DNA of 64,000 nucleotides from Deltaproteobacteria bacterium. Lineage in GTDB: Bacteria > Myxococcota_A > Polyangia > Haliangiales > SHYZ01. The notes beneath the pieces are model-generated. The model saw only the letters and a list, made by a program, of their open reading frames with translations. It was not told the DNA's origin and made no database searches. The stretch lies in assembly GCA_016210055.1 (NCBI GenBank), contig JACQUZ010000088.1, positions 6,446 to 70,445 of the forward strand, given 5' to 3'. Shown here in pieces: positions 8,884 through 38,942 of this stretch. The translations under genes and the position numbers were made by a program. Within the stretch, counting starts at the first letter, position 1. Every line of letters starts with the position of its first letter.

Positions 8884-9482
8884 CTACCGGAAATGGCACG
8901 TGGGCCGAATGACCTGCATGCACGTGTCGGCCCCTGCAACTGTGTTGGTCGTGACACGCACGGTTCCGGCCGGGGAGCCAAGGCACAGGGGGCTTTCGTA
9001 GGTGCATCGCTCCGCGGCCCGCATGCAGTCGGGATCCATGTCGCATGCCCAGCCCGTTCCGCCTTGTCCAGAATTGCAAATGCCACACTGATCGGTCGTG
9101 CCCACGCGGTCCACGACCATCCTGTCGTAATACGGCTCCATGGGCTCGCGACAGTCGAGGGAAACAGTGCGCGAGCATTCCCCGTCGCTGCGCAGGCCGC
9201 TTGACGGAAGAAGGGACAGGGAATAGCTCGCCGCGCATTGGAATTGCTCCGGCTCGCACGCGGGCGTCCAAGTGGCCGCGTAGCGGATTCGTCGCTTCTT
9301 GAGCTCCAAAGCGGTGCCAACGGCTAGGTTCGTGTCTCAGCTTCGAGGCCAAGTGGTGACTGGATGGGCTGCGGGAAGTCTGGAGCACCACAGGCATCTG
9401 ACCAGTAGTTCCTCGCGTGGGCGGCGGCCGCCACTCCCATTAGTCCTATGGACGCCGCTACACTAATCAATCGTCGAATCAT
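8884..9482 (-). pseudogene. Probable frameshifted gene for a secreted Cys-rich protein
   Basis: AAAGGAGG RBS plus ATG 9482 gives signal peptide MIRRLISVAASIGLMGVAAAAHA, then TAG at 9324-9326. The Cys-rich frame ending at 8884 opens just after 9337, so one missing base near 9327-9336 would join them. Confidence 0.55.
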
Positions 9483-9529
9483 TGCCAGTACCTCCTTTAA
9501 TTGCTCGGGCGCAAGTCGATAAGGGCGCG

Positions 9530-10148
9530 CTAGGGGTGAGACGCAACCTTTGGAGCTTCGCTCACGCGTTGAATGGCGAGGATGTCCTCGTCGCCAGGAC
9601 GGAGAACGGCGCGGAGGTGCCTGCGTGCCGCAGCTTCGTCCGGGGACTTCGCAAGGTACGCCAATGCAGCCTGGGAACGGATGGCGTAGCTTGGGTGCGC
9701 CTTGGCGATCTCGAGCAGCATGTCGAGTGCTCCCGTGCTGCTCATGCCTGCGAGCCCCTCGATCCCCCGAATCGCGGCAAGCCTGGTGGTGTCCTCCATG
9801 ACGAGAGGCGAGTTCTCGTCATGGGAGTTCCCTCGCTCGATTGTCACGGGGGCGGGATCGTCCCAGATCGCGGATCGGAATAGGCTCAGCGCTGTTGGGT
9901 GCTCGAGCTCTGATGCCACGTGCAGGACGACCCAGCGGGCCTTAAAGAAATGGGGGGGGAGCTCGGCAAGGTCCTCTTCGAGGATCTTGACCGCGTCTTC
10001 GGCGACTTGCCTAAGTGCATGTAGGGTGGCTTGGTATCGTTCGCCTTTCCGGGCTTCGCGCCGTTGGTAAGAGGAAAAGAAGGCAAGTCCCCGATCCAAG
10101 GGCAATGATGGCCACGAGAGTCCAGCGGGCAAGTCGCGCTCTATCCAT
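9530..10148 (-). pseudogene. Probable frameshifted gene for a membrane-anchored HEAT-repeat-like protein
   Basis: GGAGG RBS plus ATG 10148 gives MDRARLARWTLVAIIALGSGTCLLFLL..., stopping at 10011-10013. The helical HEAT-like body (RYQATLHALRQ...TRLAAIRGIEGL...IRSQAALAY) is in a different frame ending at 9530. Confidence 0.55.
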
Positions 10149-10176
10149 GAAAGTCCTCCCCAATGGAGGTACCTAT

Positions 10177-10192
10177 TACGAAAGGCGTGCCA
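10177..10192 (-). promoter_or_regulatory. sigma54-like -24/-12 element upstream of ATG 10148
   Basis: TGGCACG-CCTT-TCGTA: perfect -24 half, imperfect -12. Confidence 0.35.
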
Positions 10193-10416
10193 CCAAGGCC
10201 GCGATCGGATAACCGCGCCTTTTTGACGGGATAGGTCTCGGGAGGAAGGGCAGGTGTGGCTTATGGGGCAACGGATTGGGGCTGCAATGTGGACTCCCAG
10301 GCCACGCCACAGGTACCGAATGATGGGCACCTGCTTCTGGTCTCGCGGGGTCCAATTGGCAATTGTGCGCAGTAGGTATTGCGCGCGTTGATCAAGGTGA
10401 GGGTGTTCTGGATATT

Positions 10417-10447
10417 GTTGACCAAAGAGCCAATTCAACCATAAAAT
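10417..10447 (+). promoter_or_regulatory. sigma70-type promoter of the methyltransferase-kinase operon, overlapped by an inverted repeat
   Basis: TTGACC-N18-TAAAAT; GTTGA-N13-TCAAC palindrome across the -35 and spacer. Confidence 0.55.
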
Positions 10448-10532
10448 GCCGGCCGGCTTAGTTCTGGACAAGACTGCGTGCGGTGTCCGTGCCCTGGGAG
10501 ACATGAGGGCATGATCAGAAACGGGACGGACG

Positions 10533-11996
10533 ATGACGTTACCTGCCGAGCAACGAAATCGTTTTGATCGCAGGCTCCGGGAGAGGCGTCTCCGCGTGGT
10601 TGACCTTAGAGTGGGACCCATCTGCGCCCACGCAAGCCACGCTGCCTTGGGCACCGTGGTAGCGTCGGTCGAGGATCTATCCCTACATGGACTTGCGCTC
10701 GTTATCGATGGCCAGGCTGGCGGATCCGAGCTGGTCCATGCAGGCGATCGACTGGATAGGCTGACGTTGTCCAGCGCTGACGGGCTCGTCTACGAGGGAG
10801 CCGCGGTCGTGCGGCACGTCGGCGAGCGGACCGGCGCCCTGATAGCGGGACTCGAGCTCGAAGGCCCGGGGATTGACCTGGCTGCATTGCACCGTCGTGG
10901 TGCCCGGTCGAGCTTCTCAGAAAGGTGGGAAGAAACCCACCACGCGGCCCAGCACGCCCGGGTACGTCCTGACTTCAAGCGTTGGGTCGCGGAGCTTCGC
11001 ACGTACCTGGAGGTCACAAGAGATTTCCTGTGTGCCGAGGAGAATTCCATCCGGGCCGAGGATAGCCTGACACGCGACGAAGCGCTCGCTGAGTACCTCC
11101 ACGCGGCAGCCCCCGCCTTTGTTGCGAGGATGAACCACGCCAGTGAGTCGCTCGCACGGCTTGTGGGCGGTTTTGGTGAGGATGAGCATGCCGAGCATCG
11201 GGCGTATTGCCGTGCCCACTTGGCCCCTCTCCTAGCGAGCTCTCCATTCATGCGCCGCGCCTATGAGAAGCCGCTTGGCTATGCCGGCGACTTCGAAATG
11301 ATGAACATGCTTTACCGGGAGCATGCCGAGGGGGAAGGCATGTTCGGCAAGCTTCTCAACCTGTACGCCACTCAAGAGATCGCCGCCCGCGCGAACATCA
11401 ATCGGATTTCGTACTTGGTCGAAAAGATACGTGCGGCGATTCGGGCCACGAGGGGGCGGCGCCTGCGTGTCGCGAGCATCGGCTGCGGACCGGCGCGCGA
11501 AATCATGTCCTTGCTGGAGGAGCAGCCAGTTCTTGGTGGGGCGCTCGATGTCATGCTCCTCGATCAGGAGGAACGGACAATTGCCCACTGCGAGCGCACG
11601 TTGGTCCCTCTGGCAAAACGCACGGGTGCCCGCATTCAGTTGATTCGCGAGTCGATCCGACGGCTCCTCACCGGCCATCGACTGTCGAGCGCGCTGGGCG
11701 AGCAAGACCTCATCTACAGCGCGGGGTTATTTGATTATCTCAATGAAAGAAGCTTCCGGAGCTTGCTCTCTTCCCTGCATGGCGCCCTAGTCAAGGGTGG
11801 GCTCCTCGTCGTCGGCAACGTGGCGGCGCACAACCCCTCGCGCCACGCCATGGAGTATTTCAGCGATTGGTTCCTGATCCACCGATCAGAAGCCGAGCTC
11901 AGGGAAATGACGAGCCACTTGTTGCCGACACCCGCGGGCTACCGCGTCGAGGCCGAGCCGCTCGGGGTCAATCTCTTCCTCGTCGTCCACAGGTAA
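10533..11996 (+). CDS. PhcB-like class I SAM-dependent methyltransferase with N-terminal PilZ-like domain (putative signal synthase)
   Basis: RLRER and DLSLHG (RxxxR, DxSxxG); RAYEKPLGYAGDFEMMNMLY; SAM motif I VASIGCGPARE; DLIYSAGLFDYL; LVVGN; DWFLIHRS. Confidence 0.75.
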   Translation: MTLPAEQRNRFDRRLRERRLRVVDLRVGPICAHASHAALGTVVASVEDLSLHGLALVIDGQAGGSELVHAGDRLDRLTLSSADGLVYEGAAVVRHVGERTGALIAGLELEGPGIDLAALHRRGARSSFSERWEETHHAAQHARVRPDFKRWVAELRTYLEVTRDFLCAEENSIRAEDSLTRDEALAEYLHAAAPAFVARMNHASESLARLVGGFGEDEHAEHRAYCRAHLAPLLASSPFMRRAYEKPLGYAGDFEMMNMLYREHAEGEGMFGKLLNLYATQEIAARANINRISYLVEKIRAAIRATRGRRLRVASIGCGPAREIMSLLEEQPVLGGALDVMLLDQEERTIAHCERTLVPLAKRTGARIQLIRESIRRLLTGHRLSSALGEQDLIYSAGLFDYLNERSFRSLLSSLHGALVKGGLLVVGNVAAHNPSRHAMEYFSDWFLIHRSEAELREMTSHLLPTPAGYRVEAEPLGVNLFLVVHR

Positions 11997-12002
11997 CTTG
12001 CG

Positions 12003-14552
12003 ATGAGCGCTGGTGAATCGTTCGAAGCCAGCATCTCGCAGCGCAACGTGCGCGGGGCGAGGCTCGGCTGCATGCTGGTGGCGATCCTCATGCCGGTGGG
12101 GACCCTGCTCGATCTTGTCACGCAGCGTGACAAGCTTGGGGAGTTCCTGCTGCTTCGGCTTTGTGCTTCGGCTTTTGCGCTTGTCGTGCTCCTTACGACC
12201 CGCGCTCCCTGGGCGCGGAAGCACGCTTTTCTCCTGGGCGCTGCGCCGGCAATATTCTGCGCGGCTATCATCGAAGTCATGGTGGAGGCCCTCGGCGGTT
12301 ACTCGTCGCCGTACTACGCCGGCCTCAACCTGTGCATCCTCGGCGTGGGGTTGGTATTCACCTGGCGCCTCTACCAGGCGGCGCTCGTGTGCGTCCTCAT
12401 TATTGCGATGTGGCTTATCCCGCCACTCATGGGCGGGAAGCCCATCGACTTGGGGCCTTTTTTTAATAACCTCTATTTCCTCATCCTCACCTCGGTGATT
12501 GCGGTGGCGTCCAACGAGAGCCGTTACACCGCCGCACGGCGAGAGCACGATGCGCGCATGCAGCTCGCCCACACGACGGGAGAGCTTTGTGCGGCCCTCG
12601 ACCGCCTTCAGGAGCTGGACCGCGTAAAGAGCCAGTTCTTCGCGAGCATCTCCCATGAGCTCAGGACGCCTTTGACGCTCATCTTGGCTCCCGTCGAGGA
12701 GCTCATCGCGCGCACCGAGACTGGGGCAGTGCGGGACACGCTCCTCATGATACGGCGCAACGCCGAGAGGCTGCTGCGGCTGATTGACGATCTCCTCGAT
12801 CTTGCCCGCCTCGAGGCGGGGGGCCTCCGCCTGCAAGTCGGGCCCGTGGATCTGCGGGCGCTGGCCGCTCAAGTCGTGGAGGCGTGCAGGCCGACCGCAG
12901 AGGCCAAGCGAATCGAGCTCGGATTTCATGTCGAGCCAGGGGTGGAGGGAATTCACGGCGATCCACACCGCCTGGAGATGGTCCTCACGAACTTGATCGG
13001 AAACGCGCTGAAGTTCACGCCGCAAGGAGGGCGCATCCGAGTGACCGTGTGCCCGACAAGAGGTGGAGCGAGCGTGCTCGTGTCGGACAACGGTCCAGGA
13101 ATTGCCGAGGCCGACCTCCCGTTCATCTTCGATAGGTTCTACCAGGCGGATGGCGGCGGCGATCGCGCGCAGGGAGGCGTCGGCATCGGGTTGGCGCTGG
13201 CCAAGGAGCTCACGGAGCTGCACGAAGGCACCCTCTCGGTCGAAAGCGAGCTAGGCGTTGCTACGACCTTCACCCTCTGGCTTCCCAAGGGGCGCGATCA
13301 CTTCCGCCCCGAAGTGATCGAGCGCCGGCGAGGCGTCGTCGAAGGGCACCTCGGATGGCGATCGAGCGACTCCAAGCCTCACGCTCGAGGGGAGCCGACA
13401 CCCCTTAGAGTCTCCACCGAGACGCTCGAGCTGCCCGACGATGGGCCACTCCTCCTCGACGGCTCTCGCCGTCCGCGGATAGTCGTCGCCGAGGACCAGG
13501 ACGACCTGCGTGCGTTTGTTCGCGACGTGTTGTCGGAGGAGTTCGACGTGCTGTGCGCCGCTGACGGTGAGGAGGCGCTTGTCCTCGTCAAGCGGGAAGT
13601 TCCCGACCTAGTTCTCTCGGACGTCATGATGCCCGGCAAGACGGGCACCGAGCTCTGTCGTGAAATCAAGAACGACGAGGCGCTCAAGAACACGCCCGTC
13701 ATTCTCCTCACCGCTCGGGTGGGCTCCGACGCGGCGCTCGAGGGGTATGCGATTGGCGCCGACGACTACGTGATCAAGCCATTCCATGCGCGCGTGCTGG
13801 TGGCACGGATCAGGGCTCAGCTCCGCTTGCGGGCCCTCGGGCTCAAGCTCGCCGCTAGGGAGAAGCTGGCCGCCGTCGGGACCTTGGCCGCGGGAGTCGC
13901 CCATGAGGTGCGCAATCCGGTAAACGCCATCATCAACGCAGCGCAGGTGCTCCGAGACCAGGCACTCTCAACGCCAGCGACCAAGCGCCTGCTCGAGGTC
14001 ATCATGGACGCGGGCGAGCGAATCTCGTCCATCACGTCGGCCCTCACGGAACACGCACGCCCCGCCGAAGCAGGAAAGACGTCAATATGTGATGTCCGCG
14101 CGGGACTCGACGCGACCTTGCGCCTCTTGGAGTTTCGCATGTCGGGGGTGGAGGTCGAGAAACGGTATGAGTCAGATCGCATGGTCGTCGCGCCTCCAGG
14201 TGAGCTCAACCAGGTGTTCCTGAACCTCCTGGACAACGCGCTGCGCGCCAACGCCAGGCATATCCGAGTCCAGGTGGCCGACCAAGCCGATCGAGTCGTC
14301 GTGCGCATAGGCGACGATGGGCCTGGAGTGCCGCAAGGGGTCGTAGAGCGAATCTTCGATCCCTTCTTCACCACCCGAGCACCAGGGGAGGGTACTGGGC
14401 TCGGTCTGTTCCTGTCACAACGAATCGTGAAGAAACATGGCGGCGACCTCCGACTCGAGCGGTCCAAGGGGACGGGCGCAGTGTTCGCCGTTGAATTGCC
14501 AGCCGAGGTGGGAACATGGCTTCGATCCTGTACGTCGACGACGACACATTGA
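12003..14552 (+). CDS. Membrane hybrid histidine kinase (TM sensor-HisKA-HATPase-REC-HisKA-HATPase), PhcS-like sensor
   Basis: About 6 TM helices including GGYSSPYYAGLNL; SHELRTP, NLIGNALKF, GVGIGL; receiver EDQDD/LSDVMMP/KPF; second AHEVRNP, NLLDNA, GTGLGL. Confidence 0.92.
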   Translation: MSAGESFEASISQRNVRGARLGCMLVAILMPVGTLLDLVTQRDKLGEFLLLRLCASAFALVVLLTTRAPWARKHAFLLGAAPAIFCAAIIEVMVEALGGYSSPYYAGLNLCILGVGLVFTWRLYQAALVCVLIIAMWLIPPLMGGKPIDLGPFFNNLYFLILTSVIAVASNESRYTAARREHDARMQLAHTTGELCAALDRLQELDRVKSQFFASISHELRTPLTLILAPVEELIARTETGAVRDTLLMIRRNAERLLRLIDDLLDLARLEAGGLRLQVGPVDLRALAAQVVEACRPTAEAKRIELGFHVEPGVEGIHGDPHRLEMVLTNLIGNALKFTPQGGRIRVTVCPTRGGASVLVSDNGPGIAEADLPFIFDRFYQADGGGDRAQGGVGIGLALAKELTELHEGTLSVESELGVATTFTLWLPKGRDHFRPEVIERRRGVVEGHLGWRSSDSKPHARGEPTPLRVSTETLELPDDGPLLLDGSRRPRIVVAEDQDDLRAFVRDVLSEEFDVLCAADGEEALVLVKREVPDLVLSDVMMPGKTGTELCREIKNDEALKNTPVILLTARVGSDAALEGYAIGADDYVIKPFHARVLVARIRAQLRLRALGLKLAAREKLAAVGTLAAGVAHEVRNPVNAIINAAQVLRDQALSTPATKRLLEVIMDAGERISSITSALTEHARPAEAGKTSICDVRAGLDATLRLLEFRMSGVEVEKRYESDRMVVAPPGELNQVFLNLLDNALRANARHIRVQVADQADRVVVRIGDDGPGVPQGVVERIFDPFFTTRAPGEGTGLGLFLSQRIVKKHGGDLRLERSKGTGAVFAVELPAEVGTWLRSCTSTTTH

Positions 14553-15649
14553 ACCTGACGGTGTTTGAAGCCGCCTGCGCCGGGGACTTCTCGATCCTCA
14601 CGGCCACCAACGCCGACGTGGCCCTGGGGATGATGCGGAGGCACGAAGTGGGCGTCCTGCTCACGGATCAGCGCATGCCTGGGATGTCTGGGATCGAGCT
14701 GGCAGAGCTGGTCAAGAACGAGTTTCCGGATACGATCCGAATGCTCGTCACGGCATACTCGGATCTCAACGCCACGGTCGATGCCATAAACCGGGGACAG
14801 GTCCTTAGGTACCTCCGCAAGCCCTGGGATCCGAGAGAGCTCAAGAACTCGCTCCACGAAGCGCTCGGCGTTTATGAGATGAACCGTCGGATTCGGGAGC
14901 TCGAGCGTCGGCTCGTGGAGACCGAGCGCGTCTATGCCCTCGGCATCGTCGCGGCCGGCATCGCCCACGAAATCCGCAATCCGATGAACTGGATCGTGAA
15001 CAACCTGGCCATGGCCCAGGACAACTTGCGCGAAATAGGCGAGCTCATCCCAGCCGAGGATCCACGCGGCCAGGCTGTGTACGCACGCCTTCGCGACCTC
15101 GAGGAGGAGGTCTCGGACGCATTGCAAGGGGCGGCACGGATCACTGACATCGCCAAGGGGATCGAGTTGTCGACCCGAACCCGACAGGAAGATGACGCCG
15201 TCGACCTCGCCGAGGTCTTGAGCCTCACGTTGAAGAGCGTTCTCGGTGAGCTGCGGCAAAGATCACAGCTCCGCCTCGACACGCGGCCGGTACCCAAGAT
15301 TCGCGGGTCCCGAACCAAGCTCGGACAGGTCATCTTGAACTTGGTCGTCAACGCCATCCAGGCGCTACCCAGGCGTCCCCAGGCTGAGAACCTGATTGGT
15401 ATCAAGCTGGCTCCCGAAGGATCGCGGGTGCGCCTCGAGGTGGAGGACAACGGGACTGGCATCTCGGTCGAGCACCTGGATCGAATTTTTGATCCCTTTT
15501 TCACCACCAAGGCCGACAGCGGTACCGGGTTGGGATTAGCGATTTCCAAGAAGATCGTGGAGGAGATGGGCGGAGAGATCCAAGTCCAGAGCGAGCCTGG
15601 CCGTGGGACGCGATTCCAGATCACGTGGCCCGCGCTGGCGTCCTCTTGA
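14516..15649 (+). CDS. Receiver-histidine kinase hybrid (REC-HisKA-HATPase), PhcR-like architecture
   Basis: YVDDD, LTDQRMPGMSG, KPWD; AHEIRNP, NLVVNAIQA, DPFFTTK, GTGLGL; overlaps the upstream kinase by 37 nt. Confidence 0.92.
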   Translation: MASILYVDDDTLNLTVFEAACAGDFSILTATNADVALGMMRRHEVGVLLTDQRMPGMSGIELAELVKNEFPDTIRMLVTAYSDLNATVDAINRGQVLRYLRKPWDPRELKNSLHEALGVYEMNRRIRELERRLVETERVYALGIVAAGIAHEIRNPMNWIVNNLAMAQDNLREIGELIPAEDPRGQAVYARLRDLEEEVSDALQGAARITDIAKGIELSTRTRQEDDAVDLAEVLSLTLKSVLGELRQRSQLRLDTRPVPKIRGSRTKLGQVILNLVVNAIQALPRRPQAENLIGIKLAPEGSRVRLEVEDNGTGISVEHLDRIFDPFFTTKADSGTGLGLAISKKIVEEMGGEIQVQSEPGRGTRFQITWPALASS

Positions 15650-15695: not shown

Positions 15696-16814
15696 GTGTC
15701 GCCCGCCGATGAGCTTGCTCTCTTGCTCCGCCCCGCTGGTGGCGGGCTCTACCTGGTGTCTACTGGCCGCGCGGAGCAAGTGGCGCTTCAGCGCCGCCTG
15801 TACGGCGCACGCGACGAGGCCGAGGTGCAGGACAGGTTCCTCCGCGCTCTTTCGCAAGTGGCCTCGGCGCGCGCGGTGATCCTCGGAATCCCCTCGGACG
15901 TGGGCGCCGGCTACCAACGCGGCGCGAACCTTGGGCCGCAGGCAATCCGCGCCCGCCTGCTCGACGACGAGCCAGGGTTCTTCTCGCGCCTCGCCTCCGA
16001 AGGCGTGGTGGACATCGGCGACGTTTTTGTCGTGCCTCAGCTCCTCCACGACGACATGCTGAGCGAGGAGCAGAAACGGGCGACGCGACGCGCCTTGTAT
16101 CCCGTGCTGGCGGCCCATGAGGCAAAAGGCTTCCCCGTGTCTCCCCTGTCCATTGCAGAACGGGCGCTCGACCTGGTGTTCCAGCTCAACCCGAGCGTGG
16201 CGCCCCTGATCATCGGAGGGGACCACTCGACGGCGTGGCCCGTGGTCGCGGCCATGGCTCGCGTGCGTCGTGAGACCTGGGGGATCGTTCAGATCGACGC
16301 GCACACGGATCTCCTGCCTGAGCGGCTCGGGGTCCGCTATTGCTTTGCGACGTGGTCGTACCATGCCAATGAGCTCCTCGGGCGAAGAGGGCGGCTCGTG
16401 CAGGTTGGGACGCGTGCCTCGCGGCACGACCGAAGCCATTGGGAGAACGAGCTAGGCGTGCGCCAGTTCTGGGCACGGGAGTGCAACCGAGACCCGTCGG
16501 GCACGCTGGATGCCATCCTCGAGCACCTGCATGGCGTTGGGGTGAAAGGGGTCTACTTCTCGAACGACATCGATGGCACCGACGAAGCGCATGCGGACGC
16601 GACAGGTACCCCAGAGCCAGGTGGCTTGTCTCCTTCGCTCGTCACGGAGCTCATTCGTAGACTTGGTCGAGAGATAGGTCTCATTGGCGGCGATCTCATG
16701 GAGGTAGCCCCCGCCCTTCGCCCTAGGCCAGACAGCTCCTCCCGCACCCTCGCGGTGGCCGGGACCTACTTCCGGGAGACCCTGGCGGCACTTCTCGGAA
16801 CCCCAAAACCATAG
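15696..16814 (+). CDS. Arginase/agmatinase (ureohydrolase) family protein
   Basis: GANLGPQAIR, GGDHS, DAHTD, SNDIDGTD, ATGTPEPGGL, DLMEVAP. Confidence 0.9.
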   Translation: MSPADELALLLRPAGGGLYLVSTGRAEQVALQRRLYGARDEAEVQDRFLRALSQVASARAVILGIPSDVGAGYQRGANLGPQAIRARLLDDEPGFFSRLASEGVVDIGDVFVVPQLLHDDMLSEEQKRATRRALYPVLAAHEAKGFPVSPLSIAERALDLVFQLNPSVAPLIIGGDHSTAWPVVAAMARVRRETWGIVQIDAHTDLLPERLGVRYCFATWSYHANELLGRRGRLVQVGTRASRHDRSHWENELGVRQFWARECNRDPSGTLDAILEHLHGVGVKGVYFSNDIDGTDEAHADATGTPEPGGLSPSLVTELIRRLGREIGLIGGDLMEVAPALRPRPDSSSRTLAVAGTYFRETLAALLGTPKP

Positions 16815-38015: not shown

Positions 38016-38942
38016 ATGCCGGACTCCCAGGGTACCCGCGCCCGCTTGTTGCTTGTGGACGACGACCACGCGACCCTCGAGCAGCTCTCGCGCATGGTTT
38101 CTGAAATCGGCTACCAGCCGATGACCGCGACGACTTGGTCGGACGCGTTGCGCTTGTTCCGCGAGGGGAAACCCGACCTGGTGCTCCTCGACGTGATGAT
38201 GCCGACGATAGACGGGTACAAGCTGGCACGCATCATCAAGTCGGACTCCGCGATGTTCGTTCCCATTATTCTCGTCACCGCGTTGGAGGACATCGAGTCC
38301 AAGCGAAGGGGCATGGCTTCAGGGGCCGATGATTTCTTGACCAAGCCCGTGACCTCGCTGGAGCTGCAGATCCGGCTCTCGTCCATGCTCCGGATCAAGG
38401 AGCTCACGGATCAGCTCCAACAGGCGAACGCCAAGCTGAACCAGCTGGCGGTCACGGACCCCCTCACGGGGCTTCACAACCGTCGATCTCTCTATGCGCA
38501 GCTCGAGCGCGAGTTCGGTCGGGCCCAGCGGTATGGCCGCCCGCTCACGTGCACCATGATCGACATCGACTTTTTCAAGCAGGTTAATGATCGATATGGT
38601 CACCAAGTGGGAGATCGCGTGTTGCGAATGGTGGGCGATGTCCTTAGGGCCACCATCCGCGCGACCGACGTCGCCGGCCGCTTTGGTGGGGAGGAATTCA
38701 TGATCCTGGCGCCGGAGACCGGGCGGGACACCGCCACCACGCTGGGAGAGCGTATTCGCGCCACCGTGCAGGGGTGCAGCGAGGCTGCGGGCGACGGGAT
38801 CCCACTCGTCACGGTCTCCGTTGGGATCGCCACCACCGAGTCCCTCGACGGATGCGGGTATGATGACCTCGTCCACCTGGCGGATGATGCCCTGTACCGT
38901 GCCAAGCGAGACGGCCGCAATCGGGTGGTCATCGCGGACTAG
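38016..38942 (+). CDS. Response-regulator diguanylate cyclase (REC-GGDEF)
   Basis: LVDDD, LLDVMMP; TDPLTGLHNRR, DIDFFKQVND, I-site RATD, RFGGEEF. Confidence 0.95.
   Translation: MPDSQGTRARLLLVDDDHATLEQLSRMVSEIGYQPMTATTWSDALRLFREGKPDLVLLDVMMPTIDGYKLARIIKSDSAMFVPIILVTALEDIESKRRGMASGADDFLTKPVTSLELQIRLSSMLRIKELTDQLQQANAKLNQLAVTDPLTGLHNRRSLYAQLEREFGRAQRYGRPLTCTMIDIDFFKQVNDRYGHQVGDRVLRMVGDVLRATIRATDVAGRFGGEEFMILAPETGRDTATTLGERIRATVQGCSEAAGDGIPLVTVSVGIATTESLDGCGYDDLVHLADDALYRAKRDGRNRVVIAD

Follow-up and report, generated by a model that had tools for sequence, protein, structure and literature searches.

Is the output of a cell-to-cell signal synthase set directly by an intracellular second messenger? 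The question is raised by a gene at positions 10533-11996 (+ strand) of a 64,000-nucleotide stretch of DNA from a deltaproteobacterium (the window). Its open reading frame, BLASTP and the names of its homologs identify the 487-aa product as a methyltransferase of the PhcB family, consisting of a PilZ-like domain, a helical linker and a class I SAM methyltransferase. PilZ domains are the usual receptors for c-di-GMP, and an earlier note on this DNA had described the first ~115 aa as a PilZ domain that was fused to a putative signal synthase and carried both c-di-GMP-binding motifs.

Profiles and an AlphaFold2 (AF2) model place the PilZ-family domain at residues about 13-122 (10569-10898, +), where an arginine loop and a short helix precede a predicted six-strand barrel and the start of a C-terminal helix. 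The long helical linker or bundle that follows (residues 116-234; 10878-11234, +) is common to PhcB, as judged from the AF2 model and from profile alignment to the Burkholderiales PhcB family. The PhcB-type methyltransferase domain (11244-11993, +), recognized from weak Pfam methyltransferase matches, structure searches and invariant columns, contains a KPLGYAGD motif (residues 246-253), the SAM-binding loop SIGCGP (residues 315-320) and an AGLFDY motif. The ATG at 10533 is supported as the start codon because the invariant R16 and R19 lie upstream of the other possible start, a GTG. This GTG is codon 27, and P0002 (461 aa), the gene as called in the database, begins there and omits the entire arginine loop (10533-10613). 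One Vulgatibacter record is likewise shortened (465 aa, compared to 489 aa in RefSeq); automatic gene calls can conceal the arginine-loop motif. No NCBIfam model was found for the whole 487-aa protein, and an RNA family search of 9400-10700 detected no RNA families, including c-di-GMP riboswitches.

We assign residues 13-122 to the PilZ family on four lines of evidence: hhalign, a profile search of the PDB, Pfam and Atlas. Alignment by hhalign of a profile of 104 family N-domains to a profile of 30 of the 32 PilZ matches in the source genome gave a probability of 95 (E 2e-8). When the family profile was compared to PDB sequences, the six best matches were to YcgR, 8U0I (a PilZ protein) and BcsA, and each was weak (E 0.03-0.2); PDB searches with the single sequence yielded no PilZ match. 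The query scored 19 bits (E 0.0018) with the Pfam PilZ model (PF07238), below the cut-off of 22.5 bits. PF07238 matched all 31 N-domains examined (query and 30 related loci) at E<=0.1, with a best E of 2e-8, and the ortholog from the cultured Vulgatibacter incomptus, WP_050727339, which RefSeq names PilZ domain-containing protein, was above the cut-off at 26.1 bits. An Atlas search returned PilZ clusters in 26 of 30 matches, with scores of 0.92-0.93 and shared-feature counts below its benchmark of 170. The full-length AF2 model (mean pLDDT 91.9; 72 in the arginine loop) is consistent with this assignment, as it contains, at high confidence, six strands across residues 31-109 followed by a long helix from residue 116. 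Thus, the region is beta-rich and of the PilZ family, as the earlier note had proposed. Among the matches listed, fold searches with the full-length model returned methyltransferases only, the barrel being overshadowed by the catalytic domain. The source genome is PilZ-rich, with 32 matches over the Pfam cut-off (including G000, C54:58416-59030 and C137:44790-45098).

The description of the enzyme as a methyltransferase was also supported. Starting from a Paraburkholderia plasmid locus consisting of a methyltransferase, a kinase and two regulators, we reached a Burkholderiales family and, through it, two R. pseudosolanacearum proteins named PhcB. BLASTP of the query against Ralstonia pseudosolanacearum PhcB revealed 32% identity over 368 positions (E 1e-46), and the profiles of the query family and of Burkholderiales PhcB align from residue 34 through to the end. 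Homology is full-length and includes the KPLGYAGD and SAM-binding motifs. Many homologs bear JGI's PhcB-type name (3-hydroxypalmitic acid methyl ester synthase), and structure searches with the full-length model led to class I methyltransferases, the best being 3OCJ (Z 20.8, rmsd 2.9, 249 aligned). These comparisons indicate that the 487-aa protein is a PhcB-family member and not a close ortholog, as on the methyltransferase tree it lies in a separate clade from the Burkholderiales PhcB-like proteins. In our phylum sample, homologs were present in 79 of 301 genomes (source genome counted); the named close loci are mostly from Myxococcota.

In the Ralstonia solanacearum complex and Cupriavidus, PhcB is encoded with its partners (phcBSRQ) and makes methyl 3-hydroxymyristate or 3-hydroxypalmitate. 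The protein described here shares with PhcB the N-terminal barrel, the helical linker and the methyltransferase, and its gene lies, as in that system, directly upstream of a PhcS-type membrane sensor kinase. The two systems differ in that the kinase of this locus is of hybrid type, containing also REC and a second kinase domain. This PhcS-like hybrid kinase (12003-14552, +), which starts 6 bases past the methyltransferase stop codon, was defined by Pfam and by a membrane-region match and consists of a membrane region, HisKA-HATPase, REC and the second kinase. Over its membrane region, this protein matches the kinase from the Paraburkholderia phc operon, and it is likely the receptor. In 42 loci with the N-domain, a related membrane kinase was downstream in 33, the kinase was missing in 6, the locus was cut off in 2 and the remaining locus encoded a kinase without the membrane match. 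The sensor gene is overlapped by a gene for a REC-histidine kinase protein (14516-15649, +), also found downstream in several related loci, that is likely a relay partner.

Several other features of these loci were recorded. MASE8 was matched weakly by the membrane region of the hybrid kinase. The best NCBIfam match of this kinase is Leptospira LvrA, and LvrB is matched by most of the REC-histidine kinase; both scores are far below cut-off. An agmatinase/arginase-family gene (15696-16814, same strand) follows the operon and was not found beside the related loci examined. Acidobacteriota loci (L008-L011 and L026) have a Ser/Thr kinase gene downstream, not a PhcS-like kinase (listed for L008 and L011).

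The two motifs on which the c-di-GMP proposal was built are present: RLRER corresponds to R14-R18 (10572-10586) and DLSLHG to D48-G53 (10674-10691, +), with 29 residues between them. By itself this pair is only moderately rare, as it occurred in 68 of 8452 120-aa windows of the source genome's long ORFs and in 211 of 10,000 shuffles of residues 1-120, and the case therefore rests on homologs. D/N48, S50 and G53 were kept in 119 of 119 close homologs. All 108 close homologs covering the loop have both R16 and R19, compared to 94 of 106 with R14 and 99 of 108 with R18. A chance motif pair, which has a frequency of 0.8-2% by chance alone, is excluded by this conservation.

We also assembled a diverse set from 50%-identity representatives, loci and five PhcB-like proteins (157 aligned, minus 11 with an unalignable or different N-domain and 13 near-duplicates, leaving 133). 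Both R16+R19 and the second motif were found in 94 members, RxxR only in 4, the second motif only in 6, all of them shortened at the N-terminus, and neither in 29. R16+R19 occurred in 98 of the 133, compared to 11 with R14+R18 and 26 with any RxxxR near the arginine loop, while the second motif was present in 100 (S, A or T accepted at the serine position). The out-of-register R14/R18 pair, carried by the query and 83 of 103 close homologs, is limited to the shallow clade of the query protein. In a second clade, the arginine loop reads FFRPxRY; a conserved YEELEGxxGREVFF that stands just ahead of RxxR in this clade (L031-L050) may add to the ligand site.

The register of the loop agrees with this pattern of conservation. 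The canonical PilZ pattern, as given in the sections we consulted of Galperin and Chou (10.1101/814665), is RxxxR-h-x-h. In the profile alignment to canonical PilZ, R19 falls on the second arginine, with R19-L20-R21-V22 in register, and L15 on the first, such that the query lacks an in-register RxxxR while its DLSLHG conforms to [D/N]hSxxG. All 103 close homologs compared are hydrophobic at the position of the canonical first arginine, and RxxxR-h is found in 24 of the 30 other PilZ domains of the source genome. Conservation and register together rule out a canonical RxxxR at R14/R18 as the family motif. Thus, DLSLHG was correctly recognized and is conserved, but RxxxR was misread: within R14-L15-R16-E17-R18-R19 (10572-10589, +), homolog conservation and profile register identify R16/R19 as the conserved pair, and on this basis the family carries a conserved h-R-x-x-R-h variant of PilZ. 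We also considered R94/H95 as a third ligand motif and rejected it, as R94 is present in 117 of 119 close homologs but only 48 of 157 diverse homologs and is not family-wide.

The domain could not be regarded as a special fusion to this synthase, since it is old in the PhcB family and the barrel is present even in Ralstonia PhcB. The RxxR-type N-domain profile scored 20.6 bits with the first 100 residues of Ralstonia PhcB, compared to a maximum of 8.7 in 1000 shuffles, and the N-domain profiles of the RxxR-type and Ralstonia/Burkholderiales clades matched with a probability of 98. Compared directly to canonical PilZ, the Ralstonia/Burkholderiales N-domain gave a profile probability of 1.3 and no direct match; its tie to PilZ is through the RxxR-type profile. 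The predicted model of a Janthinobacterium PhcB-like protein contains the same six strands. Ralstonia PhcB starts downstream of the arginine loop, and TLQRRA stands where DLSLHG would be, such that it has neither motif; a Cupriavidus PhcB homolog lacks the motifs as well. From these alignments, we interpret the N-terminal region of PhcB as a PilZ-derived barrel without the binding motifs. Because the barrel occurs in Ralstonia PhcB and throughout most of the tree, a recent lineage-specific fusion is ruled out.

A FastTree tree was built from 169 methyltransferase cores. The 29 N-domains devoid of both motifs all group in a single 34-row clade (support 99), to which the Burkholderiales proteins belong. 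In the remaining large clades, RxxR and the second motif are retained, and both last over branches of more than one change per site. It is likely that both motifs were lost together in the PhcB clade, although the direction is read from a midpoint root and the single event amounts to one observation.

Architectures elsewhere in the family bear on what the barrel does. Several reducing type I polyketide synthases also end in a PhcB-type methyltransferase domain, which comes immediately after the ACP (P0324 and P0335, both Pfam-checked, P0349, P0356, P0341 and the Enterobacter plasmid hit H4). These fusions suggest that the chain is released as a methyl ester and that the substrate of the family is bound to an ACP. 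In such relatives, the ACP stands directly ahead of the linker, and actinobacterial loci encode PhcB-family relatives that lack the barrel. In longer relatives (about 600-800 aa), the RxxR-type domain is preceded by an additional, canonical PilZ domain that Pfam detects (P0350, P0351, P0374, P0375, P0381, P0404 and P0415). Since the barrel may be absent, or have an ACP or extra PilZ domain in front, it is dispensable for the build of the enzyme, which fits a regulatory role, and we regard a regulatory barrel as most likely. Two further arrangements were seen: cNMP-binding and Crp HTH domains stand at the head of P0338, and P0426 has a canonical PilZ domain in place of the RxxR-type.

Our preferred model, to which we give somewhat less than an even chance, is that the PilZ-family domain binds c-di-GMP through the shifted RxxR and [D/N]hSxxG, tuning the synthesis of a likely fatty-acid methyl-ester signal that the adjacent kinase is predicted to read. 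In this model, the enzyme would methylate an acyl carboxyl group, as PhcB does. c-di-GMP would bind between R16/R19 (with R14/R18 helping in this protein) and D48/S50/G53, ordering the loop, and the change would reach the catalytic domain by way of the long helix that starts at residue 116, with an effect of either sign. The product would then diffuse out and act on the kinase encoded at 12003-14552. We favor c-di-GMP binding because, across long branches, the second motif's ligand-contacting positions are retained along with the arginines. In the parts of Galperin and Chou (10.1101/814665) that treat this motif, D/N and S are tied to ligand contact and only h to the fold; retention of D/N and S therefore points to a ligand. 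Counting against this explanation are the kinase missing from 6 of the 42 loci, the sub-threshold Pfam score of the query and the fact that co-loss is a single event. In the literature consulted, moreover, a product or a signaling role is described for Burkholderiales only.

A mutation in PhcB also argues for regulation through the barrel. As described in the available portion of Tang et al. (PMC6989110), the R22C change in PhcB falls outside the methyltransferase domain and leaves less signal in supernatants without being a null. R22 is invariant in 74 Burkholderiales sequences and aligns to V43 of the 487-aa protein, on the strand leading into D48. As this change falls within the barrel and lowers signal output, we count it for a regulatory reading of the c-di-GMP type. 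The same result can be turned the other way, however, as PhcB keeps a barrel that still matters without either motif. On such grounds, the domain could be a PilZ-fold docking module that has lost c-di-GMP binding, with the loop contacting an acidic partner (the ACP or a receiver domain of the operon) or forming internal salt bridges. The non-canonical register of RxxR agrees with docking, as does the ACP that directly precedes the linker in the polyketide synthase fusions. Moreover, PhcQ is needed for signal production and a possible contact with PhcB has been suggested, according to the same portion of that study (Tang et al., PMC6989110). Nonetheless, D/N48, S50 and G53 are kept with the arginines over deep branches and lost with them, and a pure docking surface leaves the hold on guanine-contacting positions unexplained. 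We consider docking without c-di-GMP unlikely, though the strongest of the rivals.

Known proteins offer partial precedents for the proposed c-di-GMP control of the synthase. The domain resembles canonical PilZ domains (PF07238; YcgR, BcsA and MapZ) in its predicted six-strand barrel and C-terminal helix, in [D/N]hSxxG and in having the second arginine followed by h-x-h. It differs from them in the first arginine, which is displaced by one (RxxR) and replaced at its canonical place by a hydrophobic residue, in the short helix inserted ahead of the first strand and in the query's score below the Pfam cut-off. In M. xanthus PixB (PilZ-PilZ-acetyltransferase) and in P. aeruginosa MapZ acting on CheR, PilZ is likewise coupled to a group-transfer enzyme, and MapZ is described, in the excerpts consulted, as contacting its methyltransferase through its C-terminal helix. 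These cases differ in that the enzymes and substrates are unrelated and no diffusible signal is made; MapZ is also a separate protein. According to the relevant passages of one M. xanthus study (PMC8316039), PixB binds c-di-GMP, which we count as a myxobacterial precedent for a c-di-GMP-binding protein that joins PilZ to an enzyme. In the same passages (PMC8316039), the PilZ protein PlpA fails to bind c-di-GMP despite having the conserved binding residues, and this, together with the out-of-register first arginine, we count against binding here.

PixA bears on a further alternative, in which c-di-GMP is bound without gating catalysis, affecting instead location, stability or oligomer state, or in which the methyltransferase is not a signal synthase. 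PixA binds c-di-GMP, and its function under the tested conditions does not need binding, as described in those passages (PMC8316039). A non-signal product would also accord with the identity to PhcB of only 32% and with the loci that lack a kinase. However, 33 of 42 loci have a related membrane kinase downstream, and PhcB shares the family motifs. We regard this alternative as improbable.

For c-di-GMP to act on the synthase, the cell must make it. The window encodes a REC-GGEEF diguanylate cyclase (38016-38942, +) that is intact, as had been reported, with a Pfam GGDEF score of 160 bits, REC, the GGEEF sequence and the guanine-specifying Asp. As judged from its position and sequence, it is unlinked to the operon and demonstrates only the capacity to make c-di-GMP. 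GG[D/E]EF is present in 11 of the 17 GGDEF-type matches of the source genome, including this gene. It is quite improbable that another nucleotide, such as 3',3'-cGAMP or a guanine nucleotide, is bound and that the arginine shift reflects the change of ligand: the shift is strictly conserved in many clades without decay, as expected of a selected alternative geometry, but the Asp-to-Ser change in GGDEF that is linked to altered substrate choice in the portion consulted of PMC12943098 was found in none of the 9 parsed of 17 GGDEF matches (8 Asp, 1 Gly).

Literature searches, which covered titles and the starts of abstracts and were thin for subscription papers and much PhcB enzymology, returned no PilZ domain on PhcB, no RxxR PilZ subtype and no demonstration of binding by an RxxR PilZ domain. 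In the parts consulted of a Ralstonia paper that mentions both PhcB and PilZ, pilZ figures solely as a pilus gene (PMC10576176). The PilZ and PhcB parts are thus known singly; their combination is uncharacterized, and the shift in the motif represents a genuine departure.

A broader proposal, more doubtful than our model for this protein, is that a cyclic dinucleotide gated the ancestral PhcB-type synthases through a distinct RxxR subtype of PilZ domain, which is found in hundreds of sequence clusters in several phyla, and that Ralstonia and the Burkholderiales lost the site and kept the barrel as a handle. If so, the R22C phenotype would be explained, the undescribed N-terminus of PhcB would gain a fold and a history, and the synthesis of a cell-to-cell signal would be under direct allosteric control by a second messenger. 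If both binding and gating hold for the 487-aa protein, a shared signal would be switched at the enzyme itself by the cell's internal c-di-GMP level. The RxxR subtype would also widen the rule for predicting c-di-GMP receptors, since scans for RxxxR would discard most of the family. Independently of the ligand, a structural frame for regulation is obtained for the N-terminus of PhcB, which the available portion of Tang et al. (PMC6989110) places outside known domains, and an unstudied Phc-like signal is pointed to in a quarter of the phylum genomes sampled.
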